From a virus (taxonomy: Duplodnaviria > Caudoviricetes), in the IMG/VR virus record IMGVR_UViG_3300033069_001940, positions 1-64,000 of that record: a DNA stretch of 64,000 nucleotides; one strand, given 5' to 3'. The notes under the pieces were generated by a model, which ran no database searches, was not told the origin of the DNA, and saw nothing but the letters and a program-made list of their open reading frames with translations. Every line of letters starts with the position of its first letter. Positions within the stretch are counted from its first letter, which is position 1. Position numbers and translations under genes: made by a program. Of the stretch, positions 39,588 through 58,498 are shown one piece after another.

Positions 39588-39589
39588 TT

Positions 39590-40684
39590 ATGAAAATTTG
39601 TATCAAAGGTTTTTTCGGTGAGAATCACTCTTGGGCAGTATGTCATCGCGGTCTAGCTAATTCCTTAATTAAAAAAGGACATGATGTAGATATCTGTTCT
39701 ACAGATGGAAGTAGATTTCTTCCAAAAAATCTACTTCCATTTCTTAAAAAAGAAAATCAATTATATCATGATTATGATATGCAAATTAGTTATACTGCTA
39801 TGATTAATTTTCCGAGACATTTATCGCGCGGAACCAAAAATAGATTTGGTATTTGGAATTATGAATTTACGGTTTTGCCAAATAAACCACAACCATTTAA
39901 TAAATTTTATACATTTACTGATAAATTTCTGCCATCCTCGAATTTTTCAAAAGAAATTTTTTTAAAAAATAATATTCCAGAGAGTCATATGGAAGTGGTT
40001 TCTCATGGAGTTGATTTAGAACATTGGAATAATTTAGAGCCATTTAAATTAAATACAAATAAAAAAGTTAAAATATTAGCCAATATAGCACAGCCTCATA
40101 TAAGAAAAAATCTATCAGGATTACTAGACGCTTATGGTTTAGCATTTAATAAAAGCGATGATGTTTGTTTAGTGTTGAAGGTAGTTGATAAACCGCCTTC
40201 ATTTTCTTTTGAAGTTTCTTTTTCAGAAATATATAAAGACTTTAATAAAAAATTCCCTAATCATGCGGAATGCGAAGTTATTAAAGCTTTTATTCCAGAG
40301 ATAGGAAGTTTATATAAATCAACAGACATAGTATTTACTATGTCAAATTCTGAATGTTTTTATTTTCCTGGATTAGAAGCATTAGCAACTAATAATATAA
40401 ATGTTTGTCCTCGTTATGGTGGACAATTAGATTTTTTAAATGATGGCAATGCTTTGTTGATAAGTGGAAAAGACGTCAGAGCCCCAATTGCGGCTCAATA
40501 CTGGAATGGTTCGCCATACTCTTCTATGTTTGAGCCATCAGTTAGTGAAGCCGTAGATAAGTTAAGGTTCGCGGTATCAAATGTAAATGATTTAAAAAAT
40601 AAATTTTCAACAAATTCTAAAGAGATATTGAAAGAATATACTTGGGACAAAGTTACTGACAAAATTATTAGTTTGGCAAAATAA
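39590..40684 (+). CDS. Glycosyltransferase family 4 (GT-B)
   Basis: V.HGVD, RKNLSGLLDAY and S.SECFYFPGLEALA (E-x7-E motif), YGGQLDF, YTW. Confidence 0.88.
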   Translation: MKICIKGFFGENHSWAVCHRGLANSLIKKGHDVDICSTDGSRFLPKNLLPFLKKENQLYHDYDMQISYTAMINFPRHLSRGTKNRFGIWNYEFTVLPNKPQPFNKFYTFTDKFLPSSNFSKEIFLKNNIPESHMEVVSHGVDLEHWNNLEPFKLNTNKKVKILANIAQPHIRKNLSGLLDAYGLAFNKSDDVCLVLKVVDKPPSFSFEVSFSEIYKDFNKKFPNHAECEVIKAFIPEIGSLYKSTDIVFTMSNSECFYFPGLEALATNNINVCPRYGGQLDFLNDGNALLISGKDVRAPIAAQYWNGSPYSSMFEPSVSEAVDKLRFAVSNVNDLKNKFSTNSKEILKEYTWDKVTDKIISLAK

Positions 40685-41646
40685 TGTCATTTAAAATTTT
40701 TCCTTTTTCGGCCGGAATCCCTTGGGAAATAAATAAGGGAATCTTAAATCCTAAGATTCCATTTAATATTTTAAATAATGCTATTTCAGATAAAAATATT
40801 ATTGTTACTTGTTATGGTGGTTTGCTAGAATCTTATTTAAGTCTTTCTTATCTTGAAGCTTTTAATAAAATTTGGCCATCTAAAAAATTAACTTGGTCAG
40901 GCAACCCTATATTCAAAGATTTGATAGAAGCAAATGGTCTGTCTAAATTTAGCGAAGAAATACCTGGAGAGATTTTATCAAGATACCCTGTACCGTTATT
41001 TTTTGATAAATTAAATAACGCAATATTTAATCCATTAAATAATTACATAAAAATAAAACCTTATTATGGAGGCTTGAAATCATTCAATAATAATAATGTT
41101 TATTTAAAACAAATCTGGAATAATTCTCTTCTTGATTTTAAAAATTTTTATTTGCCTTTAATTAGAAATGATTTTGATAATAATAATTTTAAAAATCATT
41201 TATTATTATCAAAATTTGATTTTAATAAACCTTATATTATTATTATCCCTGATGATTTAAAATATTCAATTCATTCTCAAAAATGTTTGCCTTGGAATAT
41301 TCAACAGGTTAAATCTTTTGCTACAATTATATCACAATTAGGATATTCTACAGTTATCTTAACTGATAACGTTTATAAATATTATTCAAATAATTTGCCT
41401 TTTGTTTTTGAATTTAATTTTACTGCATTTTTTACTTTAATTAAGAATTCAAAAATGATTTTATCTAATGAAATAGATTTTTTATTAATTTCACAGTTAA
41501 TATCGGACAATTATTTGGTATCAAATAAGGTAAAAAAATATCTAGATTTTGGTAAAATTGATTATTTATTAAAAACAAAAAGTAAAATTAAAATATTCAA
41601 ATCAATGAATCAAAATGATGTTATTGGATTATTAAATAAAATATGA
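40684..41646 (+). CDS. Divergent GT9 (heptosyltransferase-like) fold protein
   Basis: GGLLE...L..L....P.KKLTW, KPYIIIIP...K..PW and LIKNSKMILSN segments parallel the GT9 layout. Degenerate. Confidence 0.4.
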   Translation: MSFKIFPFSAGIPWEINKGILNPKIPFNILNNAISDKNIIVTCYGGLLESYLSLSYLEAFNKIWPSKKLTWSGNPIFKDLIEANGLSKFSEEIPGEILSRYPVPLFFDKLNNAIFNPLNNYIKIKPYYGGLKSFNNNNVYLKQIWNNSLLDFKNFYLPLIRNDFDNNNFKNHLLLSKFDFNKPYIIIIPDDLKYSIHSQKCLPWNIQQVKSFATIISQLGYSTVILTDNVYKYYSNNLPFVFEFNFTAFFTLIKNSKMILSNEIDFLLISQLISDNYLVSNKVKKYLDFGKIDYLLKTKSKIKIFKSMNQNDVIGLLNKI

Positions 41647-44252
41647 AATCATATATTACAGCATTTAAAAATTGTAGATTTACTAACTATGGATTATTAT
41701 TTGAATCTAAAACTGGAAGGTGTTTTTTAGATTTGTCTGGATATAGTAAAGTTAAGTTATGTTTTACCAGAATTTCTGGAGATGGCAAAATTATTCTTTG
41801 TTCTGACGGATTAGATAAAGAATATTCAATATTATCAAAATATAATTTTGAATTAGAGATTGAATTTAACGATCCAAAAATTCAAATACTTCGCCCTAAG
41901 AGTAGCCTTGGAGAGATTGTTTTAACTAATGTTATAGTACAGGATGGTATGTCAAAATGGAATGAAATTTTTAAAAAGATTGATTCTAAATATATTAGAG
42001 TTGTTAATGATAATTTATATGCCAATGACGGGGCTTATATAGCGCCTAAAGATCTTGTAGATAATTTAATAACAATTCCAGAAAAAAGTTTTGTTTATAA
42101 GGAAGATAAAATTGTTTTTAGTCAATGTCAAATAAGCGCTTTGTCTTTAAAAGACAAATTAGAGACGACAAAAGAAGAAAAATATACTGAAATATATAAT
42201 TCAAATCAAAGTCTTTCTTTTAAAAATTATAATTATAATAGTAAAAAACTTAAATATATTTATAGTTGCGGGGAGCATTTTTTATTATTAAAACCAATCT
42301 CCAATGCGAGTTTTTCTGTTTCTAATCTTGAAGAAAACACAAAATATTACATTAAAATTAGAGCAAAAAAATTAAATGGCAATGGTAGATTTCATTTTAA
42401 TATTTCTCCAAAAAATAATCTTGGATTTGCTGACTGTACAATAGACGCTGGTTCTAATTTTAATGAATTTAATCTAACTGTAGAGACTGGTTCTATAGAA
42501 TTTCCTGGCAATTTATTTAAAATAAATGTAGGTATGTTAGATGATGGTATAGGCGAAGTTTTAATATCTAACATAACAATTTATTGCGATTCAGAAAAAT
42601 GCAATATTGTAAATATACCAAAAAATATACCAAAAAATACATTAAATAAATTAAAAGAAAATGAAACAAAAGTTATTTTAAATAAAAATATTAATAACAA
42701 ATCAATAATATCTAAAAATCTCCCACAATTATTAAATCCATCCAAATTAAGACCATCTTTTGATTTAAAAGCAAATACAGATAGAAAATTTGTTATAGTT
42801 ATTCCAAGCTATAAAAATGAGAAATGGGTTGAAAAAAATATCACTTCAGCATTAAATCAAAATTATAATTTTTATAGAGTTATTTTTATAGATGATTGCT
42901 CCCCGGATAATACATTTGAAGTGGCTCAAAATGTTATTAAAAAATTAAATTCACAAATTAAAACAACTCTAATTAAGAATCAAGTTAGAAAAGGCGCTCT
43001 TTGCAATTTATATAATGCCATTCATAGTTGCGCTGATGACGAAATTATTGTTACTCTTGATGGCGATGATTGGCTTGCACATGATAATGTTTTAAGTTTT
43101 CTTAATACCGTTTATAAGTCTGGAGATACTTGGATGACTTATGGCCAATATAAAAATTGGCCAGATGGCGGCAAGGGTTTGTGTAAACAAATTCCAAAAC
43201 ATATTATTGATAGTAATGCTTATCGAGCGCATGAATGGTGCTCTTCTCATTTAAGAACATTTTATGCCTGGCTATTTAAATCAATTAAGTTAGAAGATTT
43301 TAGATATCAAGACCAAGAATTTATGAGTATGGCTTGGGATATGACTATGTGTTTCCCAATGTTAGAAATGTCTAAAAATCACCATAAATTCATTCCAGAT
43401 ATTTTGTATATTTATAATCTTGAAAATCCACTCAATGATCATAAGGTTAATAAAAAATTACAACAAGACACCGATGCATTTGTTAGAGCTAAAAATAAAT
43501 ATCAACCTAAATTACCAGAACAATATAATGGTAAAAAAACTAAAATTGGTCTTTTAATTATTGGGACTAATAAATATGTACAATTTTTAAATCCATTAAT
43601 TTCATCTGCCGATAGATATTTTTTTGTTGATGATAAGTATGATGTAACTTATTTTGTTTTTACCGATGGTAAAATTAATTTTGCTACAAACAGAAACGTT
43701 GAAGTAATACCTATTGAACATAAATCATTTCCGTTTGCGTCTATGGATAGATTTAAACATTTTTCAAATAATAAAGAAATTTTAAGTAAAATGGATTATC
43801 TTTATTATGTAGATGCGGATAGTTTGTTTGTTGATAGTATAGATGATGAAATTTTAGGTGATTTAGTTGGCGTTACTCATTGTGGTTATTACAAGCGCCA
43901 AGGAACCTTTGAGACAAATAAAAATTCTAAATTATACCATCCATTAGAAAAAACAAAAAATGCAGTTTATTATGGAGGAGGATTCTCTGGAGGTTTGTCT
44001 TCTAAATATTTAGAGTTAAGTCAGGAAGGTGCGAGACTGATCGAAGAAGACCTAAATAATAACATCATGCCCCTTTGGCATGATGAGACTTTTTTAAATT
44101 ATTACTTTATTAATAATCCTCCACAAATTACTCTTTCTCCAAGCTATCATTATCCACAAGATAATCCAGAAATATATAAAAAATGGAGCCCTGATAATTT
44201 TATTCCTAAAATATTGTTGCTTGAAAAAAATCACAGAGATATTAGGTCTTAA
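41643..44252 (+). CDS. Multidomain glycosyltransferase: CBM-like N-region + GT2 + GT6 (ABO-type)
   Basis: GT2: IVIPSYK, SALNQNY, IDDCSPD, LDGDDWL. GT6: IGLLIIGTNKY..F, VTYFVFTD, YVDAD, YYGGGFSGG, WHDETFLN.Y. Upstream jelly-roll-like domain. Confidence 0.88.
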   Translation: MKSYITAFKNCRFTNYGLLFESKTGRCFLDLSGYSKVKLCFTRISGDGKIILCSDGLDKEYSILSKYNFELEIEFNDPKIQILRPKSSLGEIVLTNVIVQDGMSKWNEIFKKIDSKYIRVVNDNLYANDGAYIAPKDLVDNLITIPEKSFVYKEDKIVFSQCQISALSLKDKLETTKEEKYTEIYNSNQSLSFKNYNYNSKKLKYIYSCGEHFLLLKPISNASFSVSNLEENTKYYIKIRAKKLNGNGRFHFNISPKNNLGFADCTIDAGSNFNEFNLTVETGSIEFPGNLFKINVGMLDDGIGEVLISNITIYCDSEKCNIVNIPKNIPKNTLNKLKENETKVILNKNINNKSIISKNLPQLLNPSKLRPSFDLKANTDRKFVIVIPSYKNEKWVEKNITSALNQNYNFYRVIFIDDCSPDNTFEVAQNVIKKLNSQIKTTLIKNQVRKGALCNLYNAIHSCADDEIIVTLDGDDWLAHDNVLSFLNTVYKSGDTWMTYGQYKNWPDGGKGLCKQIPKHIIDSNAYRAHEWCSSHLRTFYAWLFKSIKLEDFRYQDQEFMSMAWDMTMCFPMLEMSKNHHKFIPDILYIYNLENPLNDHKVNKKLQQDTDAFVRAKNKYQPKLPEQYNGKKTKIGLLIIGTNKYVQFLNPLISSADRYFFVDDKYDVTYFVFTDGKINFATNRNVEVIPIEHKSFPFASMDRFKHFSNNKEILSKMDYLYYVDADSLFVDSIDDEILGDLVGVTHCGYYKRQGTFETNKNSKLYHPLEKTKNAVYYGGGFSGGLSSKYLELSQEGARLIEEDLNNNIMPLWHDETFLNYYFINNPPQITLSPSYHYPQDNPEIYKKWSPDNFIPKILLLEKNHRDIRS
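42612..42640 (+). repeat. 12-bp tandem repeat in interdomain linker
   Basis: AATATACCAAAA x about 2.4, encoding NIPKNIPKNT. Confidence 0.6.
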
Positions 44253-44972
44253 ATGTCAGTTATGTTTTCAAAATTGGGACAAATGGGGCGTCTAGGTAAT
44301 CAGTGCTTTCAGGCGGCTGCCGCCATAGCATTGGCAGATGAATATAGCGTCCCCTACTTATTACCTAAAACAGAATTACATGAAGCTTTTCCTAATTTAA
44401 AATATTGTAGTATTCCAAATAGCTCAATGGTATATAAAGAACCAGATTTTTCTTATAAAGAAATACCGTATGTTGAAAATATGGATTTATTAGGATATTT
44501 CCAATCTTGGAAATATTTTAATAATTGTAGAGGCTTAATAAATAATTTATTTAAATTTCCCAATGATGTGCCAGAATTAACAGGAGTTACTGCTATTCAT
44601 GTACGTCGTGGTGATTATGTAAAACTTGGTCAAGAATATTATGTCGATTTGTCTTTTACAGATTATTATGTCCAAGCAATAGGATATATTAAGTCTAGTA
44701 AATATTATGTTTTTTCAGATGATTTAGAATATTGTAAAAAAATGTTTAAAGGTAATGAATATGAATTTATATCATCTGGAAGTCCGTGGAAAGATTTACA
44801 GATGATAAGTTCTTGTGAAAATGTTATTATGGCCAATTCATCATTCTCTTGGTGGGGAGCTTATTTAAATAATAATCAAAATAAAATAGTAATAGCTCCT
44901 AAAAAATGGTTTGGTAGTAAATTGTCGCATAGTACAAATGATTTATATAACTCAGAATGGGTTATAATATAA
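44253..44972 (+). CDS. Alpha-1,2-fucosyltransferase, GT11
   Basis: GRLGNQ, GYFQSWKYF, IHVRRGDY, VFSDD and NSSFSWWGAYL family motifs. Confidence 0.92.
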   Translation: MSVMFSKLGQMGRLGNQCFQAAAAIALADEYSVPYLLPKTELHEAFPNLKYCSIPNSSMVYKEPDFSYKEIPYVENMDLLGYFQSWKYFNNCRGLINNLFKFPNDVPELTGVTAIHVRRGDYVKLGQEYYVDLSFTDYYVQAIGYIKSSKYYVFSDDLEYCKKMFKGNEYEFISSGSPWKDLQMISSCENVIMANSSFSWWGAYLNNNQNKIVIAPKKWFGSKLSHSTNDLYNSEWVII

Positions 44973-44981
44973 AGGTTTTTT

Positions 44982-45761
44982 ATGACAAGCTGGTGGAATA
45001 AAAATGTAGAATCAAGGCTTGATGACTTTAAGTCATGGGTTGGGGACCATAATCAGGCAAGTAAAGTTTATTGTAGAAAATATATTGTAGAAAAACAATA
45101 TAAAAGTATGGTAGATTGTGGTTGTGGGTTAGCCACAGATTTTTTTGCATTAAAAAATGATGGTTATAGCATTGCTTATACCGGCATAGACAGTTGTAAA
45201 TTTATAGTTGATACTAATAGGTCTAATGGAATAGACATGGTGGAGGCAGAATTAGAACAACCTTTACCAATAGAAGATAATAAATACGATGTAGCGTATT
45301 GTAGAGAAGTTCTTGAACATCTATCTTATTATGAAAATGCAATAAATGAATTTATAAGGATAGCTTCAAAAGAAGTAATAATTGTATGGTTTATAAAACC
45401 AATAGAAGAATGGCAGTGGGAAGAAGAGATAAAAGATAAAATTCTTAGAATGAAAAAAGAGCATTTTGAAGAACAATATAAAATAAATACAGAGAATGGA
45501 TTAACTGATCCTCTTCTAGTAAAAGATATAGATATAGTAATTTCCGATGATAATAAAGAAATCAATTATTGGAAGCCAGAAGATCTTTATCATAACAAAT
45601 ATGATAAAAATAAATTAGAGAATTTTATCTTAAGCAATCCAAAAGTAGAAAAAATATTTTGGAATGATGTGTGTGATGAACCATATCCAGTTCAATGTGA
45701 AACTGATAATAAGCCCAATTTCATAAAATCAGTATTACATATAGTTTTAAAGGAAAAATGA
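44982..45761 (+). CDS. Class I SAM-dependent methyltransferase
   Basis: VDCGCG, YTGID, LP..D..YD....EVLEHL. Confidence 0.85.
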   Translation: MTSWWNKNVESRLDDFKSWVGDHNQASKVYCRKYIVEKQYKSMVDCGCGLATDFFALKNDGYSIAYTGIDSCKFIVDTNRSNGIDMVEAELEQPLPIEDNKYDVAYCREVLEHLSYYENAINEFIRIASKEVIIVWFIKPIEEWQWEEEIKDKILRMKKEHFEEQYKINTENGLTDPLLVKDIDIVISDDNKEINYWKPEDLYHNKYDKNKLENFILSNPKVEKIFWNDVCDEPYPVQCETDNKPNFIKSVLHIVLKEK

Positions 45762-46837
45762 AATTTTTTAATATCGATCAACATGTTTCAGTCATAGCGG
45801 ATATCGCTCATATATTTAAAAATTTAGGTCATCAGGTTGATGACTGGTCATTGTCTGGACATCATTGGGTTTTAGGTAAACCAAAACCAAAAATTATGTT
45901 AAGCGACGGAAGTCAACTCATTGGATCTAATGTTTGCACTCAAGAAACATGTGATAAATTTTACGAACAATATAAAGATCAATTAGAACAATATGACGCT
46001 TTTATTGTTTGTTATCCAGTAGAATTTGCGCTCCTTTATGAAAAATGGAACAAACCAATTATAGTCGTAAATTGTGTTAGATATGAAGCGGATATGAATA
46101 TCCAAACATGGACACGAATAATTAAAAGTAGGCTAGATAATTTTTTAAAGCTTAAACAAAGTGAAGGTAAATTATATTATATTTGTAATAATAAAGGAGA
46201 CCAATATTATACAAAATATTTTACAGGCATAGATGGTGTGCATATTCCAAGTTTGTGCGAGTATACTAACGCAAAATATACTGGAACAAAAAATAAATAT
46301 ATAATACATGATAGAGCAGAGATTTCTGTTAATAATAATTTATGTATTAACTTAGATAATATAAGGGATAAAAATAGGAAATATACTTGGCAAGATTTAT
46401 ATGATTATAAAGGGGTTATACATGTACCTTATAATAATGGTTCAATGTCTATATTTGAACAATATACAGCAAATGTTCCAATGTTTTTCCCATCAAAACA
46501 ATATGCAAAAAAACTTATTAGTGAAAATAAAATGTTTTCTGATTTGACGTTTTATAAAATTAACAAAGTTAATGAGCCAGAAGATTATAATAATCCAAAT
46601 AGTTTAAGAAATCCAGAAATTTTAAATAAATGGATTGATACATCTGATATGTATGATGTTGACAATATGAAATATATTCAATATTTTGATTCGCTTGCTC
46701 ATTTAGAGCATTTATTAAAAACAGTTAATTTGAAAGAAATTAGTAGTAATATGTCGGCACATAATGTATTAAGAAAAGAATCTATATATAATAGCTGGAA
46801 TCAAATTATTACAAGTGTTAAAAGTAAAATTAATTAA
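45758..46837 (+). CDS. Putative glycosyltransferase (GT-B-like), unclassified
   Basis: LGHQV N-terminal motif and YKGVIHVPYN..SMSIFEQYTANVPMFFP C-terminal nucleotide-sugar-binding-like segment; cluster context. Confidence 0.5.
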   Translation: MKFFNIDQHVSVIADIAHIFKNLGHQVDDWSLSGHHWVLGKPKPKIMLSDGSQLIGSNVCTQETCDKFYEQYKDQLEQYDAFIVCYPVEFALLYEKWNKPIIVVNCVRYEADMNIQTWTRIIKSRLDNFLKLKQSEGKLYYICNNKGDQYYTKYFTGIDGVHIPSLCEYTNAKYTGTKNKYIIHDRAEISVNNNLCINLDNIRDKNRKYTWQDLYDYKGVIHVPYNNGSMSIFEQYTANVPMFFPSKQYAKKLISENKMFSDLTFYKINKVNEPEDYNNPNSLRNPEILNKWIDTSDMYDVDNMKYIQYFDSLAHLEHLLKTVNLKEISSNMSAHNVLRKESIYNSWNQIITSVKSKIN

Positions 46838-46852
46838 ATAAATTAGGATAAT

Positions 46853-47638
46853 ATGAAGGTTGCTATTTTTTCATTCGCTGTTAATTTTCAATTTCCAATT
46901 GATATTATGAATAGACAATTCAAAAAATATTTAAAAGATGATTATGAATTAATCATTTTTAATGATGCTTCTGATAAACAAGAAGAAAAAAATATTAATG
47001 TTGTTACTTCATCTAATCAAATTAAATGCGTACGTGTGCCACAAGAAATACATAAAATATTTAGTCCATCAGTAGCATATGCTGAAACTTTAAATTGGGC
47101 CGTTCACAATTATGCAGCATCAAAAGATTTTGATATTATTGTATTAATGCATTCTGATATATTTCCAATATGTCAAATTTCTATGGTTGATATTTTAGGA
47201 GATTATACTGTGGCTAGCACTTCTGAGTTCCGTAAAATTGGCGAAACAGGAATAACATATTTATATCCAGCTTTTACAATTGTTAATATGAAATCTTTAA
47301 AACAATTAGGTGTTCATAAATTAGATTTTGGTTTGGAGCCAGGCGTAGACACTGGAGGTAAAACTAAAGATTTTATTATAAAATATCCAAATTTAGTTAA
47401 ATTATTACCTAATTATCAAGCTTCATATTTTTTACAAACATTAGATAATTCTGAAATATTAGCGAAATATTTTAAAGAAGATTTAGAAATTTCTAGAGCA
47501 CACGGATTAAGTTCTGGATGGATTGCAGAGGGTATGTACCATTATATGGCGGGGTCTAGATGGAATTTGAATGATAATCCATTATTTGCCGAAGGGCATA
47601 AAAAAAGAATGGATTTATTTTTAAAATATTTTTATTAA
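46853..47638 (+). CDS. Putative glycosyltransferase (GT-A-like), unclassified
   Basis: IIFND, MHSDIFP (DxD-equivalent position), DTGG, YHY.AGS.W; cluster context. Confidence 0.5.
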   Translation: MKVAIFSFAVNFQFPIDIMNRQFKKYLKDDYELIIFNDASDKQEEKNINVVTSSNQIKCVRVPQEIHKIFSPSVAYAETLNWAVHNYAASKDFDIIVLMHSDIFPICQISMVDILGDYTVASTSEFRKIGETGITYLYPAFTIVNMKSLKQLGVHKLDFGLEPGVDTGGKTKDFIIKYPNLVKLLPNYQASYFLQTLDNSEILAKYFKEDLEISRAHGLSSGWIAEGMYHYMAGSRWNLNDNPLFAEGHKKRMDLFLKYFY

Positions 47639-47646
47639 AGGTGGAT

Positions 47647-48288
47647 ATGACATATTATTCTCAAGCGTGGCAAGATGAATTTGTAGCAAATATTCTAAAT
47701 TTTAAAAAGAATGGATATTATTTAGATATTGGTAGTACAGATGGAATTAATCAAAGCAATTCATATTTTTTTGAAAACGAACTTGGCTGGAAAGGAGTTT
47801 GTATTGAAAGGGGTGTTGGATATACAGAACACTACAAAAATAATAGGAATTGTGTTTTTTTAAATGAAGACGCGACACAAATTGATTATAAAAAGTTATT
47901 AGATAATTTATCTTATCCAAAGCAAATTGATTATTTATCAGTTGATATAGATGAAAATACCGTTGCTGCTTTAAATAAGCTTCCGTTAGAAGATTATAAA
48001 TTTAGTGTAATAACAATTGAGCATGACGCTTATCGTTTTAATGATTCTTTAAGATTAGAAGAAAGAAGAATATTAAGTTCATATGGTTATACCTTATTGT
48101 GCTCAGACGTTTTAGTTCCGCTCGGCTGTGGTATGGGTACAAATCTTCCATTTGAAGATTGGTGGGTGGATAATAAAGTTTTTAATATGGATAATACACA
48201 TAGGTTATGTTGCGATAAACAGTATCCAGATGATATAGTTAAAAAAGTAAAGCAAGAAAAAGTACAATGGCTAAAAGGAAATGAATGA
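47647..48288 (+). CDS. FkbM-family methyltransferase
   Basis: YSQ..QD, GYYLDIGS.DG...SNSYFFE..LGWKGVCIE, IDYLSVDID, ITIEH, EDWW. ATG at 47647 preferred over GTG at 47641 on SD spacing. Confidence 0.88.
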   Translation: MTYYSQAWQDEFVANILNFKKNGYYLDIGSTDGINQSNSYFFENELGWKGVCIERGVGYTEHYKNNRNCVFLNEDATQIDYKKLLDNLSYPKQIDYLSVDIDENTVAALNKLPLEDYKFSVITIEHDAYRFNDSLRLEERRILSSYGYTLLCSDVLVPLGCGMGTNLPFEDWWVDNKVFNMDNTHRLCCDKQYPDDIVKKVKQEKVQWLKGNE

Positions 48289-49121
48289 AAAAAATTATAA
48301 GTTATTCTTTATATAATTCTATACCAAAAAATACAATTAATGCAATTATTAATTGTATGTTAGCCGAAAAAATTTATCCAGGTTGGGTGGTGAGATTTTA
48401 TTTAGATGATACTGTGCCAAAACCTATAGTTGATATATTGAGAACATTTTCTCATGTTGAGGTTGTAGAAATGCCGCGCGGAACAGGAAGCGAAAGAATG
48501 CTATGGAGATTTTTAAGTTGTAGTTCGGAAATAGAAACAGATTACCAATCTATTATGATTAGTCGTGATGCTGACTCTTATTTATCGGTTAGAGAAAAAG
48601 CTTGTGTAGACGCTTGGCTTGCTGGTAATAAGAATTTTCATAAAATTATTGGTCATTGTTATCACACAGACCCTAAGGTTAAAATTATGGGAGGTTTATG
48701 GGGCTGTAGAAATTCTATTTTATCAAAAATGAAAGAAGAAGTTGATAAGTTTATTAATGGAGGCGAGACATATGACCAAGGATTTTTAGCCAATGTGATT
48801 TACCCAAATGTACTGCATGATTTAATTTGTCATTATGACGACCCATCATTTAATAATAAAGGTCAAAGAGTTTATGGTCAGCCAGAAGAAAAAGGAAGTG
48901 CATTTCCAATTCCTCCATATAAAGAGTGGGATGAGCCTGTTGAGGGAATTTCTTGGCTTGAAGCTAATAAACTAAATGAATTTTATTGCGCTCATTGTAA
49001 TAAAAAACACAAAGAAGTTATTGGCGGTATTATTGAGCATATTCCATCGAGAGCGATGGAGGTCGTTCGAAAATATGTCGCAGAAAAAGGAATTTCTGTA
49101 GAAGGTTGCCCCGGTTTTTAA
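48285..49121 (+). CDS. Putative GT-A glycosyltransferase of an unclassified family
   Basis: IISYSLY, YPGW.VRFY, MLWRFL, SRDADS (DxD), IMGGLWG, DQGFL...IYP. Confidence 0.55.
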   Translation: MKKIISYSLYNSIPKNTINAIINCMLAEKIYPGWVVRFYLDDTVPKPIVDILRTFSHVEVVEMPRGTGSERMLWRFLSCSSEIETDYQSIMISRDADSYLSVREKACVDAWLAGNKNFHKIIGHCYHTDPKVKIMGGLWGCRNSILSKMKEEVDKFINGGETYDQGFLANVIYPNVLHDLICHYDDPSFNNKGQRVYGQPEEKGSAFPIPPYKEWDEPVEGISWLEANKLNEFYCAHCNKKHKEVIGGIIEHIPSRAMEVVRKYVAEKGISVEGCPGF

Positions 49122-49133
49122 TAAAGGATAAAA

Positions 49134-50033: not shown

Positions 50034-50043
50034 CAGGGGAAAT

Positions 50044-51261
50044 ATGGAAGAATTATTTACATTAGGTGAGTTTTATTTATGTGACTTTCTTAAAAGCGAG
50101 GAATCTTATAGAGGAAGCAAACATGAATTAAAGTTAGTTTTAACTGATGATGGTAATGTTAGACTAGATAAACCTGCGCCATTAAATCAAATGTTTGGTC
50201 GTTACTTTTATAGGAGCGGAACAAATCAAACAATGAGAGATGAATTAAAAAATATTGTAAATTCAATTCTTCATGTGTCAAAATTAAAAGAAAATGATCT
50301 TTGGGTGGATATTGCTTCAAATGATTTAACTTTATTAGGATTTGTTCCAAATAATTTAATTAGAATTGGAATAGACCCTTGTGAAGATTCTTATTTAACC
50401 GACGCCTCTCAGAAAACTAATTTGGTTATTCAAGATTATTTTACAGCAGATGTTTTTAAAAAATGTATTTTTGGAAAACAAAAAGCAAAAGTAATAACTT
50501 GTATAGCTATGTTTTATGATTTAATTGAACCAGATAAATTCCTTCAAGATGTTAATGAGGTCTTAGATGATTCTGGTTTATTTGTAGTACAATTATCTTA
50601 TACCCCTTTGATGCTTAAGCAATTAGCGTTTGATAATATACTTGGAGAACATTACTATTATTATTCGCTTTTTAATTTAAAAGCTTTATTTGAAAAAAAT
50701 GGATTTAAGATTTTAGATTGCCAGTTGAATGATACGAATGGCGGTTCATTTAGAGTATATGCTTCAAAAATAAATTCTAATGAGTCTCATTTTGCTACTC
50801 AGCCGTATCGTGATGTAGCTGAATTTAGAGTTAAATCAATTTTGGAGTATGAAAAATCTTTAAAATTAGATAAAAAAGAAACATGGTTGGAATTTAAAGA
50901 AAATATTGATAAGCTTAAAGCTAAAGTTTTATCATTTTTAAATGAAAAAAAATCTCAAGGTAAAACTATATATGGCTATGCGGCTAGTACAAAATCAGCA
51001 ACTTTACTTCAATATTTTGGAATAGGGTCAGATTTAATCACATCTATTGCAGATAGGAATCCTTTAAAATGGGGTACGACAATGCCTGGAATAAATATTC
51101 CAATTGTTTCTGAAGATGAAGTAAGGAGCGCTAAACCAGATTATTTATTAATTTTAAGCTGGCATTTTGCCAAAGAATTTATTGAAAGGGAAAAGGATAT
51201 GTTACTTAATGGTACAAAATTTATTATTCCGTGCCCTCAATTTGAAATAATTTCAATATGA
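50044..51261 (+). CDS. NDP-hexose C-methyltransferase-like protein
   Basis: YFYRSG, DIASND.TLL, GIDP, FDNI.GEH.YYYS, GGSFRVY, GYAA..K..TLLQY, DRNPLKWG...PG..IPI, PDYLLILSWHF..E. Confidence 0.85.
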   Translation: MEELFTLGEFYLCDFLKSEESYRGSKHELKLVLTDDGNVRLDKPAPLNQMFGRYFYRSGTNQTMRDELKNIVNSILHVSKLKENDLWVDIASNDLTLLGFVPNNLIRIGIDPCEDSYLTDASQKTNLVIQDYFTADVFKKCIFGKQKAKVITCIAMFYDLIEPDKFLQDVNEVLDDSGLFVVQLSYTPLMLKQLAFDNILGEHYYYYSLFNLKALFEKNGFKILDCQLNDTNGGSFRVYASKINSNESHFATQPYRDVAEFRVKSILEYEKSLKLDKKETWLEFKENIDKLKAKVLSFLNEKKSQGKTIYGYAASTKSATLLQYFGIGSDLITSIADRNPLKWGTTMPGINIPIVSEDEVRSAKPDYLLILSWHFAKEFIEREKDMLLNGTKFIIPCPQFEIISI

Positions 51262-52049
51262 ATTTAGTTATAGGCAATACCTCACAGCTTTCATATTATT
51301 TCCCAAACGATTATATTAAAATATCATCAAGAAATATAAATTTAGATTATATTAAAAATAACAAATGGAATGCTGTATATATCTGTTTTGCAGAACAAAG
51401 AATATATGATTCTAATATAGATTATATTACACCTAATTATATTTATACTTTACAAATAATAAATTCTATTTTGGAATGCACTGATAAAATAGTTTGTTAT
51501 ACTAGTTGTGAATTATGGAATAATTTATCTGGTTATATAGATTTAGATACCGCCCCTAATTTTGATATAAATAACGAATATACTATTTCAAAATTTTTAT
51601 TGCTTAATAAAATTAAGCAATTAAGAAAAATTAACGAGAGATATAATAAAGTAATATTTATCCATCCATTCTATTTTAATTCTGCTTATAGATCAAATTA
51701 TTTTTTGTTTGGAAAAATTTTTGATTCAATTCTTAATAAAAAAGTTATAGATGTTGGTAATTTAAATTTTTATCGAGATATAGTTCATGCACAATATATT
51801 GTAGATAAAAGTATTGAAGCAAACAGCGATCTTGTGGTTGGGGCGGGAAAGTTATTTAATGTCAAAGATTTTATTGTAGATCTTTATAATTATTTTGATA
51901 TGGATTTTGAAAATTATACAAAAATTAATAATTTTTCTTCTTCTGGAAAAGAAAAATTAATTATGGCAAAAGTAAATATTAATTGGGATTATACATATCA
52001 AAATTTATTAAACGACACAGTGAATGATTTAAAAAAAGTTAAAGGATAG
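51258..52049 (+). CDS. Divergent NAD-dependent sugar epimerase/reductase (extended SDR)
   Basis: TSCELW, YTISK (YxxxK), FNSAYR...F, GNL..YRDIVH. The nucleotide-binding motif is degenerate (GNTSQLS). Confidence 0.65.
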   Translation: MNLVIGNTSQLSYYFPNDYIKISSRNINLDYIKNNKWNAVYICFAEQRIYDSNIDYITPNYIYTLQIINSILECTDKIVCYTSCELWNNLSGYIDLDTAPNFDINNEYTISKFLLLNKIKQLRKINERYNKVIFIHPFYFNSAYRSNYFLFGKIFDSILNKKVIDVGNLNFYRDIVHAQYIVDKSIEANSDLVVGAGKLFNVKDFIVDLYNYFDMDFENYTKINNFSSSGKEKLIMAKVNINWDYTYQNLLNDTVNDLKKVKG

Positions 52050-52050
52050 T

Positions 52051-52308
52051 ATGGAAGTAACTTTAGGAAATCTTATAGACCAGCTTTCGGTTGTTAATTT
52101 AAGAATCTGGCATGCCGAAGATAAAAAACGAGATAAGAGCGCTACTGATAAAGAGATAGCTGACGCCTGCCGTTTAACCAATATATGTAATAGCCAAAGA
52201 AATGATTTAATTGAAGAGATAGATAAAAAAATAAATCATATGGTTCAAACTGGTGAACTTCAAAAACTTTATGGACAGGGCTCAACAAAGATGTATGGTG
52301 GAAAATGA
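52051..52308 (+). CDS. Small helical protein (DUF4254-like)
   Basis: TLG.LIDQLS..NLRIWH.ED..R...[11 protein letters not shown] pattern, which I associate with glycosylation clusters. Confidence 0.55.
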
Positions 52309-53309
52309 CTCAAACGGCAATAATTACTGGAATTACTGGACAGACTGGCTCATATCTTGCAGACGTTCTTTTGGAAAAAGGTTACAAAGTATATGGTTTA
52401 AAAAGAAGAGCTTCAACAATTAATACTGAGCGTATAGATCATTTATATGTTGATCCTCATAAAGAAAGTAATTTAGAATTGGTTTATGGTGATTTGGCCG
52501 ATTATTCATCTATTGTGAGTATAGTAGCTGATGTTAAGCCGGATATGTTTTTTAATATGGCCGCACAATCGCATGTTCGAGTTTCTTTTGATATTCCTGA
52601 ATATACAATGGATGTTACTGGCAATGGTGTAATGCGTTGTTTAGAAGCTATAAGAAAATATAGTCCAAATACAAGATTTTTACAAGCCTCGTCTTCGGAA
52701 TTATTTGGCAGTTCGCCCCCACCACAAAATGAACAAACTAGATTTCAACCAAGGTCTCCGTATGCTGTAGCTAAAGCGGCCGGATATTATGCTGCTGTGA
52801 ATTATCGAGAGGCATATAATTTATTTGCTTGTAATACAATATGTTTCAATCATGAATCTCCACGTCGCGCTGAAACATTTGTTACAAGAAAAATAACAAA
52901 AGCGGCCTCCAGAATAAAATTAGGTTTACAAGACTTTTTATGGCTTGGTAATTTAGAATCTAAAAGAGATTGGGGTCATGCTAAAGATTACGCTAAGGCT
53001 ATGTATTTAGTTATTAATTCCGACCATCCAGATGATTATGTTGTTTCAACTGGTCAAATGCATTCTGTTAAAGAATTTGTTCAAATAGTTTTTGATAAAC
53101 TAGATTTAGATTGGACTAAATATGTTAAATTTGATCCAAAATATTTAAGACCATCTGAGGTAGATGCGTTGTTGGGTGATTCTTCTAAATTAAGAAATAC
53201 ATTAGGTTGGAAACCAGAGTATGATTTTAATATGCTTGTTGATGAAATGATTGAAAGAGATATGCAAGATGCTAAAAAAGAACAGTATATATTAAATTCA
53301 AAATTATAG
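52305..53309 (+). CDS. gmd: GDP-mannose 4,6-dehydratase
   Basis: [83 protein letters not shown]. Confidence 0.96.
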
Positions 53310-53366
53310 CTGATAACTGTCGAGTAGCTTCATTTTAAATTTCATCTCCTGTGTTGGAGAATAAAA

Positions 53367-54299
53367 ATGAGCATTAAGGTATTAGTGACCGGCGCCGCTG
53401 GAATGATAGGGTCGCATTTATCAGATAAATTAATCGATCTAGGTTTCGAGGTTATCGGATTGGATAATCTTTCGACCGGCAAAATAGAAAATTTAAATAA
53501 AAAAATGATTCTTGATAATCATTTTTATCAAGATAGTATTACTAATAAATATCTTGTTAAAGAGTTATTTGAAAAATACAAATTTAATTATGTATTTCAT
53601 TGTGCCGCTGAAATTGATTTAAGAAAAAGTTTTAAAGATCCGATTGGAAGCGCAGAGACTAATATTTTAGGTTCATTAAATTTGATTGAGCAATCTGTAA
53701 AACATCAATCTAAATTTATTTTTTCTTCTACTGGTGGCGCAATATATACATCATCTGATGAATTGCGTCTTCCATTTACAGAATGGAGAGATGCTTTACC
53801 ATCAAGTCCATATGGGTTAACTAAGTTAACAATAGAAAATTATTTAAAGATTTTTCATGAACATGATAATTTATCTTATGTAGCATTAAGATATTCTAAT
53901 GTTTATGGAACAAGACAAGCATTCGGAGAATGTGGTGTTTTGTCTATATTTATTAATAAACTTCTCAAATCTGAAAGTATTAATGTTTTTGGTGATGGTA
54001 ATCAAATAAGAGACTACATATATGTTAGTGACGTAGTGGATGCCAACATTAAAGCTATGAATTTATCTGGTGTTTATAATGTTGGAACAGGAGAAGGGAC
54101 TTCAGTTAATACAATTATTTTACATTTGAATAAATATTTTGGAATGATTGATGTTAATTATTTAGATGCTATTCCTGGAGAAATGAGATATAGTGTTTTA
54201 AATTGTGATAAATTAAAACGTCAAGGATGGTCTCCGTCTTTTAACCTAGACCAAGGTATAGCACAAGTTCTATCAAAAAGTGAGAAGTTAAATGTCTAA
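53367..54299 (+). CDS. UDP-glucose/UDP-GlcNAc 4-epimerase-like SDR
   Basis: VTGAAGMIGSH, DNLSTG, FSSTGGAIY, SPYGLTK, LRYSNVYG.RQ, GDGNQIRDYIYV.DV, YNVGTG. Confidence 0.85.
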   Translation: MSIKVLVTGAAGMIGSHLSDKLIDLGFEVIGLDNLSTGKIENLNKKMILDNHFYQDSITNKYLVKELFEKYKFNYVFHCAAEIDLRKSFKDPIGSAETNILGSLNLIEQSVKHQSKFIFSSTGGAIYTSSDELRLPFTEWRDALPSSPYGLTKLTIENYLKIFHEHDNLSYVALRYSNVYGTRQAFGECGVLSIFINKLLKSESINVFGDGNQIRDYIYVSDVVDANIKAMNLSGVYNVGTGEGTSVNTIILHLNKYFGMIDVNYLDAIPGEMRYSVLNCDKLKRQGWSPSFNLDQGIAQVLSKSEKLNV

Positions 54300-55185
54300 A
54301 AAAATATTATGTGTTGGAAGTTGCGGATTCATTCTTTCTAATTTTGTTAGAAAAGTAATTAAAGATAAATTAGATTATCAAGTTTGTAGTATAGATAAAA
54401 TATCTTCATCAAAAGATATTCATAATGTCTATAGTAATAGAAATCATAATTTCTATATTGGAAATACATTAGATAAACATTTTCTTAAAACTGTTTTTGA
54501 AATTGAAAAGCCTGATATTGTTATTCAAGGCTCTTTAACTAACCAAGAAGAATTCCTTCTTTCCAATGTAATCGGAACTGATAATTTGTGTCAAGTTTGT
54601 GAGGAATATGGCTCTAAATTATATTTATTAAGTTCAGATATAGTTTATGGCGTTTCTGAAGATGAGGAGCTAAGCCATAAAGAAACGGACTCTTGTGTTA
54701 TTTATAGTAAATATATGACATCACTAATTTCATCAGAGGATTTAGTGCAACATAGTGGGGGAACAGTTTTAAGACTATCGAATGCTTATGGTCCAAGATC
54801 CAAAAAACAAATCATCACTGATCTTATTCGTTTTCATTTAAAAAATGAAACTCCATATATTTGGAATGTTGGCTATGATTTTACTCATGTAGAAGACGTA
54901 ATATCTGCAATCCTTGTGATTATAGAATCAGGAAAAGAAAAAATATATAACGTATCATCTTCTCATCAATTTTCTGAGAAAGAAGTGTATAATGAAATTG
55001 CTAAATTAATTGAGTTAAAAGACCCAATAATAAATCAGAATACAAATTCGGTATCTACTCTTTTTAGAAGTAGCGATAATTCAAAACTAAGAGCTTTGGG
55101 CTGGAAGACTCAGCATACGTTGCAAGGTTGGTTGCCGTCGGTTGTTCAGTGGTATCTTAATAATCAATGGTTTTTAAAAGAATGA
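54292..55185 (+). CDS. Degenerate dTDP-glucose 4,6-dehydratase (RmlB)-like SDR
   Basis: GSCGFI.SNFVR, SIDK, SNVIGT..L, SSDIVYG, RLSNAYGP, HVED, V.WYLNNQW. Catalytic YxxxK reads YMTSL. Confidence 0.65.
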   Translation: MSKKILCVGSCGFILSNFVRKVIKDKLDYQVCSIDKISSSKDIHNVYSNRNHNFYIGNTLDKHFLKTVFEIEKPDIVIQGSLTNQEEFLLSNVIGTDNLCQVCEEYGSKLYLLSSDIVYGVSEDEELSHKETDSCVIYSKYMTSLISSEDLVQHSGGTVLRLSNAYGPRSKKQIITDLIRFHLKNETPYIWNVGYDFTHVEDVISAILVIIESGKEKIYNVSSSHQFSEKEVYNEIAKLIELKDPIINQNTNSVSTLFRSSDNSKLRALGWKTQHTLQGWLPSVVQWYLNNQWFLKE

Positions 55186-56357
55186 AAGACTTAACTATTA
55201 TCTCTAATGTTATGATGAGCGACGGAATTGGCCGTCAAGGAATTGGTATGTTAAAATGTGTACATCAAGATCTTGATGTTAACATATTTCCTATCGGCTC
55301 ACCTAATTATAAAGATGTCCCGCCAGAATTATTAAATACTGTATCAAAGCCATTTGATGGTTTTGGTAAGGTGGCTTTTTGGACCTATATTTTAGGTTTA
55401 AATGAACAAATGATTTCTGTTCATGCTAGGCTTAATTCAAATATTAAAATTGCTTATACTATGTTTGAATCAGATGCAATTCCTAATCTGTGGGTAAAAA
55501 TTTTAAATACTTATTATGACTTAGCAGTTGTACCAGACCCTTGGCTAGTTAAAGTATATAAAAAATGCGGAGTTAATATTCCTATTTTTGTAGTACCATT
55601 AGGCATTTTAATAGAAGATTTATTAGAATACCCATTAAAATCAAAACCAAATGATATTTTTACATTTGGGATGTCTGCCGGTTTCTGGCAAAGAAAAAAT
55701 CATATTAAGTTATTAAATGCTTTTGCTCAAGAATTTGGCAATAATGATAAATTTAGACTCAAGCTTCATGGTAGATTTGGGCCTTATAAAAATAATGTCC
55801 AAAAGGAAGTGGTTGGCCTGCATCTAAAAAATGTAGAGTTAATAGATGTTCCATTATCTAATCAACAATATAATGATTTTTTAAAAAGCTTGGACTGCTA
55901 TGTTTTCCCCTCACAAGGCGAGGGCTTCTCAGTGACTCCACGAGAAGCTATAGCTTTAGGTCTGCCTTGCATTCTTACTAATAATACAGTTCACAAAACG
56001 ATTTGTGATTCCGGGTTTGTGTTACCGATTGAGGCTAATCAAAAACAACCAGCTATATATGAAGTTTTTAATAATTCACAACTTGGACATTTCTATGATT
56101 GTTCTGTAGAAGATCTTCGCAAGGCTATGGTTGAAGTTTACAATAATTACGAAAAATATATTAAAAATTCAACAGAAGGTCGAGAGTGGGTAAAACAATA
56201 TTTATGGAGTAATCTTAAGCCCATTTATCTTAATCTCTTTAAACCAAAAGAGATCATTTTGGGAAATGAAAATTTAGTAACAGATTCTGTACTACAAACA
56301 AATAACAAAAAATTGTATAAGAAATATAATGATAGTAACTTGGTCAATCATAAATAA
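55182..56357 (+). CDS. Glycosyltransferase family 4 (GT-B)
   Basis: YTMFES, VVPLGI, RKN..KLL.AF, YVFPSQGEGFSVTPREAIALGLP (E-x7-E). Start 55182 gives an ATGA overlap with the upstream stop. Confidence 0.88.
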   Translation: MKDLTIISNVMMSDGIGRQGIGMLKCVHQDLDVNIFPIGSPNYKDVPPELLNTVSKPFDGFGKVAFWTYILGLNEQMISVHARLNSNIKIAYTMFESDAIPNLWVKILNTYYDLAVVPDPWLVKVYKKCGVNIPIFVVPLGILIEDLLEYPLKSKPNDIFTFGMSAGFWQRKNHIKLLNAFAQEFGNNDKFRLKLHGRFGPYKNNVQKEVVGLHLKNVELIDVPLSNQQYNDFLKSLDCYVFPSQGEGFSVTPREAIALGLPCILTNNTVHKTICDSGFVLPIEANQKQPAIYEVFNNSQLGHFYDCSVEDLRKAMVEVYNNYEKYIKNSTEGREWVKQYLWSNLKPIYLNLFKPKEIILGNENLVTDSVLQTNNKKLYKKYNDSNLVNHK

Positions 56358-57111
56358 TGAAGAAGATTATCTAAAAGATGTTATAGAACATCATCTACCC
56401 TGGGTAGATGCTATGTATTTTTTAGACACTGGCTCAACTGATTCTAGTTTAGATATTTTAAAACAATATAAATCAGATAAATTATATTTTGAAGAATATC
56501 ATACCAAATATATTCCTCAATATGAACTACCTTGGGAGAAAATGGTTAATCCTTTTCCAGAGGTAGAAGTAAGAAATTTTGCCATCAAAAGATGCCAGGA
56601 GATATTTAAACCAGATTGGTTAATTCAATTGGATGGAGATGAAATATTTTTACCATCACTCAAGTCTGTAATAGAAAAATCTGGTAAAGGAATATCTATA
56701 ACGCATAGTACAATCAATCCTGTTTGCGAATTAAAACATCATAATCCAGAGCGTCGAGGAGGCTATGTTTTATATGATCCTCATGCCAGAATCTGGAAAT
56801 CTGGGCATAAAATTGAATATATTAATAATCCTAATATAAAAACAGGCCAATTTCATTGCATTCCGGTTTTTAGACCTGATGTTGGACATAGAGGTCATAT
56901 ATTTAATCATCCATTAAATCTAGTAACAAATTTACCAATTCATTTTCATTTACACTGGATGTATGGTAAAAAATTACAAATGTTTTATGCTAAGCAGGGA
57001 ATAACAGAACGCAAAGAAATTGTTAAAGGGCAACCTATTAATACTTTTAGTAATATGGTTCCTCAGGTTTTTTGGGATAAAAGAGAGCAATGGATTCAGG
57101 AAATTAAATGA
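56329..57111 (+). CDS. Glycosyltransferase family 2-like (GT-A)
   Basis: NEEDYL, LDTGSTD.S..IL, RNFAI, WLIQLDGDE. Confidence 0.8.
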   Translation: MIVTWSIINNEEDYLKDVIEHHLPWVDAMYFLDTGSTDSSLDILKQYKSDKLYFEEYHTKYIPQYELPWEKMVNPFPEVEVRNFAIKRCQEIFKPDWLIQLDGDEIFLPSLKSVIEKSGKGISITHSTINPVCELKHHNPERRGGYVLYDPHARIWKSGHKIEYINNPNIKTGQFHCIPVFRPDVGHRGHIFNHPLNLVTNLPIHFHLHWMYGKKLQMFYAKQGITERKEIVKGQPINTFSNMVPQVFWDKREQWIQEIK

Positions 57112-58459: not shown

Positions 58460-58498
58460 AAATATGCCGTAGTAAACTACGGCATATTTTTTTATTTT
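58460..58498 (+). terminator. Rho-independent terminator
   Basis: 13-bp perfect stem AAATATGCCGTAG-TAAA-CTACGGCATATTT running into a T tract, just after the tubulin stop. Confidence 0.85.

Follow-up and report, generated by a model that had tools for sequence, protein, structure and literature searches.

An 18-gene sugar-enzyme cluster between a tail gene and a tubulin gene belongs to a predicted hypervariable glycan-synthesis island of uncultured huge phages

The window analyzed here, a stretch of 64,000 nucleotides (nt), is the first 64 kb of the 125.6-kb IMG/VR record IMGVR_UViG_3300033069_001940, a fragment of a tailed phage that is 29% complete according to CheckV, which implies a full phage of ~430 kb. 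Within it, 18 open reading frames (ORFs) on the + strand, extending from 39590 to 57111, lie between the gene for a 965-amino-acid (aa) protein of the distal tail or baseplate region and a gene for a TubZ/PhuZ-like tubulin, and these ORFs encode glycosyltransferases (GTs), methyltransferases, and sugar enzymes of the short-chain dehydrogenase/reductase (SDR) type. Judged from sequence comparison, the cluster is the form taken in this phage by a hypervariable island for glycan synthesis that occurs clade-wide in uncultured huge phages. The main new result is this island, with its two anchor genes, one for a GT4 enzyme and one for an SDR, and its signs of cassette exchange, and it outranks in interest the size of the cluster, which a preliminary description of the window had emphasized.

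The first of the 18 ORFs begins 2 nt past the stop codon of the 965-aa protein, and the successive junctions are -1, -4, 0, 9, -4, 15, 2, -4, 12, 10, -4, 1, -4, 57, -8, -19, -29, and -4 nt, a span of -29 to +57 nt in which most are 4-nt overlaps or gaps of <16 nt, so that the ORFs and spacing are as first described. The upstream flank (36690..39587, + strand) contains a dockerin-type calcium-binding module (Dockerin_1, E 2.4e-9) and follows a series of baseplate genes (phrog_2669 and phrog_6, the latter baseplate J) and the gene for a 2223-aa LamG/ConA-like protein; its designation as the last tail gene rests on this place downstream of the baseplate genes. The downstream flank (57108..58436, +) matches Tubulin (E 7e-18) and TubZ-like_C (E 2e-9). 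Directly 3' of the tubulin gene is an intrinsic terminator (58460..58489, +) with a 13-pair stem and a T run, which ends the gene block and is the strongest site in a scan of 39000-58999, in agreement with the earlier statement that no strong terminator precedes 58460.

The ORFs, which are all on the + strand and are named below by their first position, were annotated with Pfam, PHROGs, and NCBIfam hidden Markov models (HMMs), a sequence search of solved structures, AlphaFold models, hhalign, and language-model neighbors. The cluster opens with a GT4-type GT (39590..40684), which matches phrog_2170 (E 5.8e-25) and has Pfam GT4/GT1 matches under the cut-off. It is followed by a GT-B fold, GT9-like GT (40684..41646) with no HMM match, for which a model built from a 10-sequence alignment of relatives (predicted local distance difference test, pLDDT, 82; predicted template modeling score, pTM, 0.81) is closest among solved structures to WaaF and WaaC, which are heptosyltransferases, and to the protein heptosyltransferase TibC (E 3e-8 to 1e-5). 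The third gene (41643..44252) encodes an 869-aa fusion of a conserved N-terminal domain (residues ~1-380) with a GT2 domain (385-495, E 7e-18) and a GT6 domain (624-840, E 1.7e-37, 129 bits), and the fourth (44253..44972) encodes a GT11-type enzyme of the alpha-1,2-fucosyltransferase family (Glyco_transf_11, E 8.9e-26, 91 bits). Both the GT6 and the GT11 matches exceed their cut-offs. A class I S-adenosylmethionine-dependent methyltransferase (44982..45761; Methyltransf_11, E 2.4e-10) precedes another GT-B fold GT (45758..46837), again with no HMM match, whose model (pLDDT 91, from a 22-sequence alignment) resembles solved GT1/GT4 enzymes, namely LanGT2, OleD, PimA, and MshA.

Four of the next genes have more tentative assignments. 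ORF 46853..47638 is possibly a GT-A (GT2-like) protein, with a match at E 0.0012 to the GT2 profile of the clade and a low hhalign probability; 48285..49121 has no HMM match and may be GT-A hexosyltransferase-like, as its language-model neighbors include a cluster labeled 'Hexosyltransferase (fragment)' (score 0.98) and a GT8 cluster (0.93); 49134..50033 matches neither an HMM nor a solved-structure sequence and may be GT9-like, with Glyco_transf_9 on 13% of the members of one neighbor cluster; and 51258..52049 is an SDR-like protein, a candidate ketoreductase/epimerase that has no Pfam match, groups with SDRs by BLASTP, and aligns in hhalign to the C-terminal half of Gmd (86%) and to an SDR cluster (45%). 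Among and after these are an FkbM-family methyltransferase (47641..48288; Methyltransf_21, E 9.6e-6, above cut-off), an NDP-hexose 3-C-methyltransferase (50044..51261; Methyltransf_14, E 4e-48; solved D-mycarose 3-C-methyltransferase, E 4e-34; TcaB9, E 4e-32), a small DUF4254 protein (52051..52308; E 4e-11), and a GDP-mannose 4,6-dehydratase (Gmd; 52305..53309), which scores 452.8 bits against a cut-off of 415 for TIGR01472. The 3' part of the cluster comprises a GalE-like UDP-hexose 4-epimerase (53367..54299; Epimerase family, E 3e-54; solved UDP-glucose 4-epimerase 4zrm, E 1.1e-74), a dTDP-glucose 4,6-dehydratase-like SDR (54292..55185; 2hun, E 6.6e-22), a second GT4-type GT (55167..56357; Glycos_transf_1, E 3.9e-12), and a GT2-type GT (56329..57111; Glyco_tranf_2_4, E 2e-8).

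The tally is thus seven firm GT genes with eight catalytic domains, five identified by HMM (39590, 41643, 44253, 55167, and 56329) and two by predicted fold (40684 and 45758), plus three possible ones (46853, 48285, and 49134); three methyltransferases (44982, 47641, and 50044); and three firm SDRs (52305, 53367, and 54292), with 51258 counted as SDR-like via profile comparison only. The preliminary count, some 10 GTs or GT-like proteins with three methyltransferases, four SDRs, and a small protein besides, was therefore essentially right. Six ORFs (40684, 45758, 46853, 48285, 49134, and 51258) lack a match in Pfam, PHROGs, or NCBIfam even at E 5; the solved-structure sequence search returned nothing for 40684, 45758, 49134, 51258, or the GT4 enzyme 39590; and profile-profile comparison among the island families clarified 51258 alone.

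The setting of these genes recurs in other phages. Querying viral contigs with single proteins recovered 0 loci for the tail protein and 1 locus for the tubulin. When two tubulins were aligned and the alignment served as the query, 80 viral loci were recovered, for which as much as 10 kb of upstream sequence was fetched and whose tubulins are 42-61% identical to that of the window. In these 80 related huge-phage loci, the slot from the tail-protein homologue to the tubulin holds sugar genes throughout, in a recurrent order: a homologue of the 965-aa protein (36-52% identity), which forms the upstream island edge, then an ortholog of the GT4 enzyme 39590, variable genes, a homologue of the SDR 54292, and the tubulin. 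Orthologs of the GT4 enzyme (38-54% identity) occur in 47 of the 80 loci, and homologues of the SDR (29-37%) lie just 5' of the tubulin in 76 of them. The full order is kept in the 44 loci where the fetched 10 kb reached the tail homologue, and in these the slot measures 4.1-9.4 kb and typically contains 5-9 ORFs, with a maximum of 13. The usual set in such distant relatives is the GT4 enzyme, two GT2 paralogues, a 332-aa protein, an Fpg/Nei DNA glycosylase (31 loci), and the SDR. The glycosylase gene (L038:6793-7671 and 30 other loci; H2TH, E 2e-18) sits between a GT2 gene and the 332-aa gene, and profiles of the 332-aa, 279-aa (Fpg/Nei), and 236-aa genes of the distant relatives matched nothing in the window and its subclade.

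For loci with the tail gene more than 10 kb away, this gene was located in full records and the islands were then fetched, which yielded ten records. These are the nearest relatives of the window in the collection, with tail proteins 45-52% identical and the same flanks, and all ten islands contain the GT4 ortholog. The linkage to tail genes that the preliminary description proposed to look for in relatives is accordingly seen in these ten as well as in the 44 loci above. The subclade slots span 16-35 kb and 15-43 ORFs, so the window, at 17.5 kb, is of typical size and not the largest; G007 (22 kb, 25 ORFs), G009 (27 kb), and G015 (35 kb) all exceed it. The cyanophage S-SCSM2R, moreover, has 13 GTs (PMC12801897). 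With islands of this size in the subclade and a published system of this kind, the earlier view of a system much larger than those known in phages was overstated, and we rejected the description of the cluster as a unique or largest phage glycosylation system. No such island follows the baseplate genes of Bacillus phage G, which is the nearest relative in culture, and a search of full-text literature found no account of a sugar island conserved between tail gene and tubulin gene in huge phages.

Between its constant flanks, the content of the island changes extensively. The 11 islands of the window and its subclade contain 96 families of proteins of at least 150 aa, of which 63 occur in a single island and only the GT4 enzyme and the SDR occur in all 11; pairwise Jaccard similarity of island content is 0.10-0.58. 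The subclade has a 5' core of the GT4 enzyme, GT2a, GT2b, a GT9-like enzyme (equivalent to 40684, present in 9 of 10 subclade islands), GT2c, and a large protein with the N-terminal domain of 41643, followed by a variable middle and then by Gmd and SDRs. The complete fusion of this N-terminal domain with GT2 and GT6 is common to G005 and G007, as is the pairing of GT6 with GT11, while the N-terminal domain by itself takes the corresponding position in six other islands; GT11 44253 is present in 7 of the 10, and Gmd is 57-68% identical in 8 relatives. The great majority of the variable genes are glycan-related, and they include class I and FkbM methyltransferases and pyruvyl-, sulfo-, formyl-, and PglD-like acetyl-transferases, along with a DegT aminotransferase, ATP-grasp and HAD enzymes, and a nucleotidyltransferase. 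Selfish elements are found among them as well, in the form of GIY-YIG and LAGLIDADG_2/NUMOD3 endonucleases (L007:4723-5430; G009, G013, and G015), and a DUF4379 zinc-finger family also occurs; in L064:4317-6479 (720 aa), the Gmd gene is interrupted by a LAGLIDADG intein-like insert.

The comparison with G007 gives the clearest sign of how this variation may arise. Gene order in the two islands is equal from GT11 44253 to Gmd, save for two inserted ORFs, and the nine genes from 45758 to the end of Gmd at 53309 (~7.5 kb) are 60-72% identical (61% for 46853, 66% for 47641, and, for the DUF4254 protein, 69-76% in the G007 locus L042 and in L003). The tail protein, the GT4 enzyme, 40684, 41643, the SDR 54292, and the tubulin are 34-55% identical to those of G007, and the methyltransferase 44982, immediately 5' of the cassette, is 49% identical. 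This difference between the cassette and the flanking genes points to cassette exchange. The first gene of the cassette, 45758, has 595 homologues, which among the matches listed are mostly 57-75% identical and lie on contigs of huge-phage size, and it is missing from six near-complete relatives. In our reading, the nine-gene cassette travels from phage to phage as a module that originated in bacterial polysaccharide synthesis. The terminal pair of GT4 55167 and GT2 56329 also appears mobile: 55167 has no match in the 80 loci, the pair is absent from all the related islands examined, and a metagenome scan found homologues of 55167 (58-63% identity) on L101, L102, L103, and L105 in differing gene contexts, with the pair intact solely on L102:223-2200. 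L105 also carries, on the opposite strand, a partial 41643 homologue that is 55% identical.

Taken together, the assigned families support a pathway that is coherent and soluble and would yield a complex, methylated glycan. Soluble enzymes would produce the activated sugars inside the infected cell: the GT6 domain would receive UDP-Gal or UDP-GalNAc from the GalE-like enzyme 53367; Gmd would provide GDP-4-keto-6-deoxymannose, which leads to 6-deoxyhexoses; and the 3-C-methyltransferase 50044, with the SDR-like reductase, may direct a branch toward a 6-deoxy-3-C-methylhexose. A fucose-like sugar would be attached by GT11, yet none of the SDRs of the cluster is clearly a GDP-fucose synthase: the best of them scores 51 bits against a cut-off of 500 for the Fcl (GDP-fucose synthase) model, and 51258 or 54292 might stand in for this enzyme. 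From these sugars, the 7-10 soluble GTs (the clade-wide GT4 enzyme, the GT9-like enzyme, the GT2 and GT6 fusion, GT11, the other GT-B enzyme, and the terminal GT4/GT2 pair) would assemble an oligosaccharide stepwise in the cytoplasm, with the conserved GT4 enzyme 39590 as candidate first enzyme and with two further methyltransferases decorating the product. The acceptor would be the outward-facing virion proteins of the phage itself, modified before or during assembly, and the exchange of cassettes between phages would alter the glycan from lineage to lineage, in the way that O-antigen loci diversify. Genes for sugar nucleotidyltransferases lie 125-170 kb from the island in two complete relatives (G001:C1:176003-176698; G003:C1:205502-206071 and 214750-215436), and further sugar loci may therefore exist in those phages.

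The pathway, as far as it can be traced, has no membrane-bound component. The highest Kyte-Doolittle value over 19 residues in the cluster is 1.79, with no segment clearly membrane-like, which bears out the earlier remark on the lack of obvious membrane helices, and the sole polytopic-looking protein of the whole 125-kb fragment is a 696-aa protein of the tail module. Models of priming transferases (Bac_transf, PF02397; MraY/WecA, PF00953) matched neither the fragment nor any of four complete relatives (CheckV-complete, 447-481 kb), with matches in 9 and 12 of 14 control genomes, respectively, and Wzx (PF01943), for which control genomes also matched, was likewise not found in these five records, as the preliminary description had it for the cluster; HMMs for Wzy and ABC-2 proteins were not run. 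Serotype conversion by GtrABC relies on the flippase GtrA, on GtrB, which is anchored in the membrane, and on a serotype-specific Gtr transferase that is polytopic, and the island contains no membrane protein that could fill these roles, although no HMM search covered the Gtr families.

The virion proteins of the phage are the acceptor that we favor, at a confidence that stops a little short of even. A protein acceptor is most likely because no lipid-priming enzyme, flippase, or polymerase is in evidence. Consistent with a protein target in the cytoplasm, the slot is fixed beside a fiber-like gene across the clade, and the predicted fold of 40684 resembles, among others, that of TibC, a heptosyltransferase that acts on protein in the cytoplasm. 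The structural proteins offer a further, supportive but indirect, line of evidence. The tripeptide DGY is the most over-represented of the structural block, at 17 occurrences against 2.25 expected (the runner-up is enriched 2.7-fold), and six tandem DGY lie within 25 residues of the 2223-aa protein (30016-36687) at 33574-33648, residues 1187-1211, before its LamG/ConA-like domain. There is little excess of DGY in the island enzymes of the relatives (16 against 10.2 expected) and none in the baseplate-region proteins of phage G (2 against 1.08 expected), which lacks the island. The enrichment hints at a candidate glycan site.

Several observations weigh against a virion acceptor, which is plausible as a proposal drawn from the genes of an uncultured phage. 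The co-directional block continues into the tubulin before the terminator is reached, the islands of 31 distant relatives enclose the Fpg/Nei DNA glycosylase and others enclose homing endonucleases, and tight packing is a feature of the genome as a whole and not particular to the cluster. Operon position is weak evidence on this account, and we rejected it as proof of a virion target. The preliminary description had put forward a late-expressed pathway building a virion glycan: its soluble pathway for a methylated glycan, free of export parts, stands, while its positional argument is weakened by a block that runs on into the tubulin. The window also lacks GT2a, GT2b, and GT2c, of which the other islands keep two or three, and bacterial homologues of 45758 (32-47% identity) often adjoin homologues of Gmd and 48285. 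A tblastn search of 50,697 phage records with the conserved GT4 enzyme found matches in Streptomyces phages only, at ~25% identity, and none in mycobacteriophages. Finally, soluble phage GTs of the TarM/TarS/TarP type could use lipid-linked or teichoic-acid intermediates of the host, with the host performing the export. Because soluble transferases can rely on host export in this way, the missing membrane parts leave room for a host target.

Remodeling of the host envelope is, for this reason, a serious rival, even if we regard it as on the unlikely side. The enzymes would then extend or rebuild lipopolysaccharide O-units, teichoic acid, or capsule intermediates at the cytoplasmic face, using the carrier and exporters of the host, and the product would block superinfection or keep progeny from adhering to cell debris. 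The repertoire of Gmd, GalE-like, GT11, GT6, GT2, and GT4 enzymes with C- and O-methyltransferases is that of bacterial surface-polysaccharide loci; the bacterial homologues of 45758 often have the Gmd and 48285 neighbors just mentioned; hypervariability within conserved flanks would equally suit an arms race over surface receptors; and polymorphic GT clusters of cyanophages have been interpreted in this manner (PMC7824862; S-SCSM2R, PMC12801897). Set against this, neither a priming transferase, a flippase, nor, apart from the 696-aa tail-module protein, another polytopic protein is found in the fragment and the four complete relatives, which would make the phage wholly dependent on compatible host machinery despite up to 43 island ORFs, and the island is fixed next to the fiber-like gene clade-wide.

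It is a good deal less probable that the glycan stays free or is secreted as an oligosaccharide, or that it is attached to some other acceptor, such as a lipid, a small molecule, or a phage or host protein outside the virion, for example the tubulin or a defense protein. The tubulin does always adjoin the island, the GT-B fold of 45758 resembles natural-product GTs (LanGT2, OleD, and CalG), deoxysugars with a 3-C-methyl branch typically belong to antibiotic glycosides (TcaB9 and TylC3), and an overview of jumbo phages has raised the possibility of secondary-metabolite clusters in cyanophages (PMC7824862). However, polyketide, non-ribosomal peptide, and terpene synthase genes were not seen in the island, likeness of a GT-B fold is hardly informative on the acceptor, and 7-10 transferases imply a long glycan rather than a decorated small molecule. 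Hypermodification of DNA, in which the sugars would be placed on modified phage bases to evade restriction, is very improbable: phage clusters that add mono- to trisaccharides to 5-hydroxymethylcytosine are known, some of them near structural genes (bioRxiv 10.1101/2023.12.21.572611), a DNA glycosylase lies within the island of 31 relatives, and this fragment encodes a thymidylate-synthase-family protein, but no Tet_JBP match was obtained in the five records (the controls being likewise silent), the thymidylate-synthase family is absent in three of four near-complete relatives that retain the island core, and 7-10 transferases, branched methylated deoxysugars, and GT6/GT11 enzymes far exceed known DNA glycans.

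Returning to virion proteins as the acceptor, the closest analogue in logic is the glycosylation clusters of the Megavirinae. These comprise 6-33 genes, are clade-specific, and in most clades are bordered on either side by a conserved gene (Notaro et al. 2022, PMC10117803), and the glycans have been chemically demonstrated on the virion fibrils (PMC10117803). Clustered nucleotide-sugar pathways, many GTs, and tailoring by methyl, pyruvyl, and sulfo groups are common to both, here in 5-43 ORFs extending from tail gene to tubulin. The likeness noted is one of organization. The Megavirinae are eukaryote-infecting Nucleocytoviricota, whereas the present system is that of a bacterial tailed phage known from its genes alone. 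Bacterial O-antigen and capsule loci are similar in their hypervariable cassettes within conserved flanks, in their signs of cassette exchange, and in their content of Gmd, GalE, GT2, GT4, GT11, GT6, and methyltransferases; they differ in that they depend on a priming transferase plus either a flippase or an ABC exporter, and neither a priming transferase nor Wzx was found here. In the glycosylation of flagellin and of serine-rich adhesins, soluble cytoplasmic transferases act on a structural protein encoded nearby. Unlike in those islands, no Maf-type or GtfA/B-type enzyme was identified in the present one. The GT6 and GT11 domains also recall the ABO-type antigen pathway, in which GT6 and GT11 are combined and GDP-fucose comes from Gmd together with Fcl.

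Among phages, mycobacteriophages of the Che8/Corndog type have soluble GTs that reportedly act in the cytoplasm on the capsid and tail proteins of the phage itself (Freeman et al. 2023, cited in PMC12619734). Soluble, phage-encoded GTs are shared with the present system, which differs in having 18 genes that include sugar-nucleotide synthesis and in its anchor GT4 enzyme, which has no mycobacteriophage match (the other transferases were not searched). The mycobacteriophage systems are reportedly made up of a handful of genes and modify capsid and tail-tube subunits at their C-termini. The clusters of jumbo and T4-like cyanophages are alike in their many paralogous GTs (GT11 and GT2), their epimerases, their presence in lytic phages, and their polymorphism among relatives (Iyer et al. 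2021, PMC7824862; PMC12801897). They have been read as a means of host-surface modification, contain sugar kinases and nucleotidyltransferases, and have not been described as occupying a fixed slot after a tail fiber gene; the cyanophages also belong to a different lineage, whereas this phage is distantly related to Bacillus phage G.

This relationship and the wider setting emerge from the rest of the record. The baseplate J protein has >1000 homologues, carried on contigs of up to 459 kb, with a distant match in phage G (30% identity over a quarter of its length); the nearest match to the baseplate protein, at 88% identity, lies on a 188-kb contig. No near-identical DNA was found among the 50,697 phage records. 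The + strand carries 137 of the 146 ORFs, and between 12.2 and 60.8 kb the single gap of at least 35 nt between genes is that at 53310-53366. Two G+C-rich hairpins with T-rich runs, at 10662-10757 and 11385-11489, lie 3' of the genes for an 814-aa and a 208-aa protein and look like terminators of highly expressed structural genes; past 11489, no intergenic gap of at least 35 nt contains such a hairpin until 53310, the terminator scan itself having covered 39000-58999. Matches to sigma-70-type promoters are at chance level (125 against 128.8 expected) and are thus uninformative on internal promoters. The 696-aa tail-module protein (22599-24689), with six hydrophobic segments within residues 81-233, is perhaps the tape measure. 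Downstream of the tubulin is a paralogous pair of ORFs (58451-59635, 394 aa; 59656-60759, 367 aa), which has a 26%-identical homologue within the L048 island; the listed TTG start of the 394-aa ORF overlaps the terminator, so its true start is probably further downstream. Outside the window, this record contains a full-length gene of the thymidylate-synthase family (G000:C1:96324-97142, E 1e-91).

Whichever acceptor applies, the fixed slot and its two anchor genes make the system easy to locate and compare in metagenomes, and the anchor GT4 enzyme is a concrete enzyme for testing. If the host envelope is the target, the rebuilding of the host surface at this scale by a lytic huge phage would be something undocumented so far. 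For a virion glycan, one specific form, which we consider possible but doubtful, is a virion 'serotype locus': a recombining, GT4-anchored island of 5-43 ORFs that would place lineage-specific glycans, tailored with methyl, pyruvyl, sulfo, and amino groups, on tagged outer virion proteins, possibly at the tyrosine of DGY, so that the sugar coat of the particle would be a counterpart, by analogy, of the bacterial O-antigen. If the glycan is indeed carried by the virion, the island would be a large natural supply of soluble GTs and sugar-tailoring enzymes, and tailed phages would have complex, fast-evolving sugar coats akin to those of giant viruses and bacterial cells, with a bearing on host recognition, on escape from recognition by hosts or grazers, on the stability of the particle, and on competition between phages.

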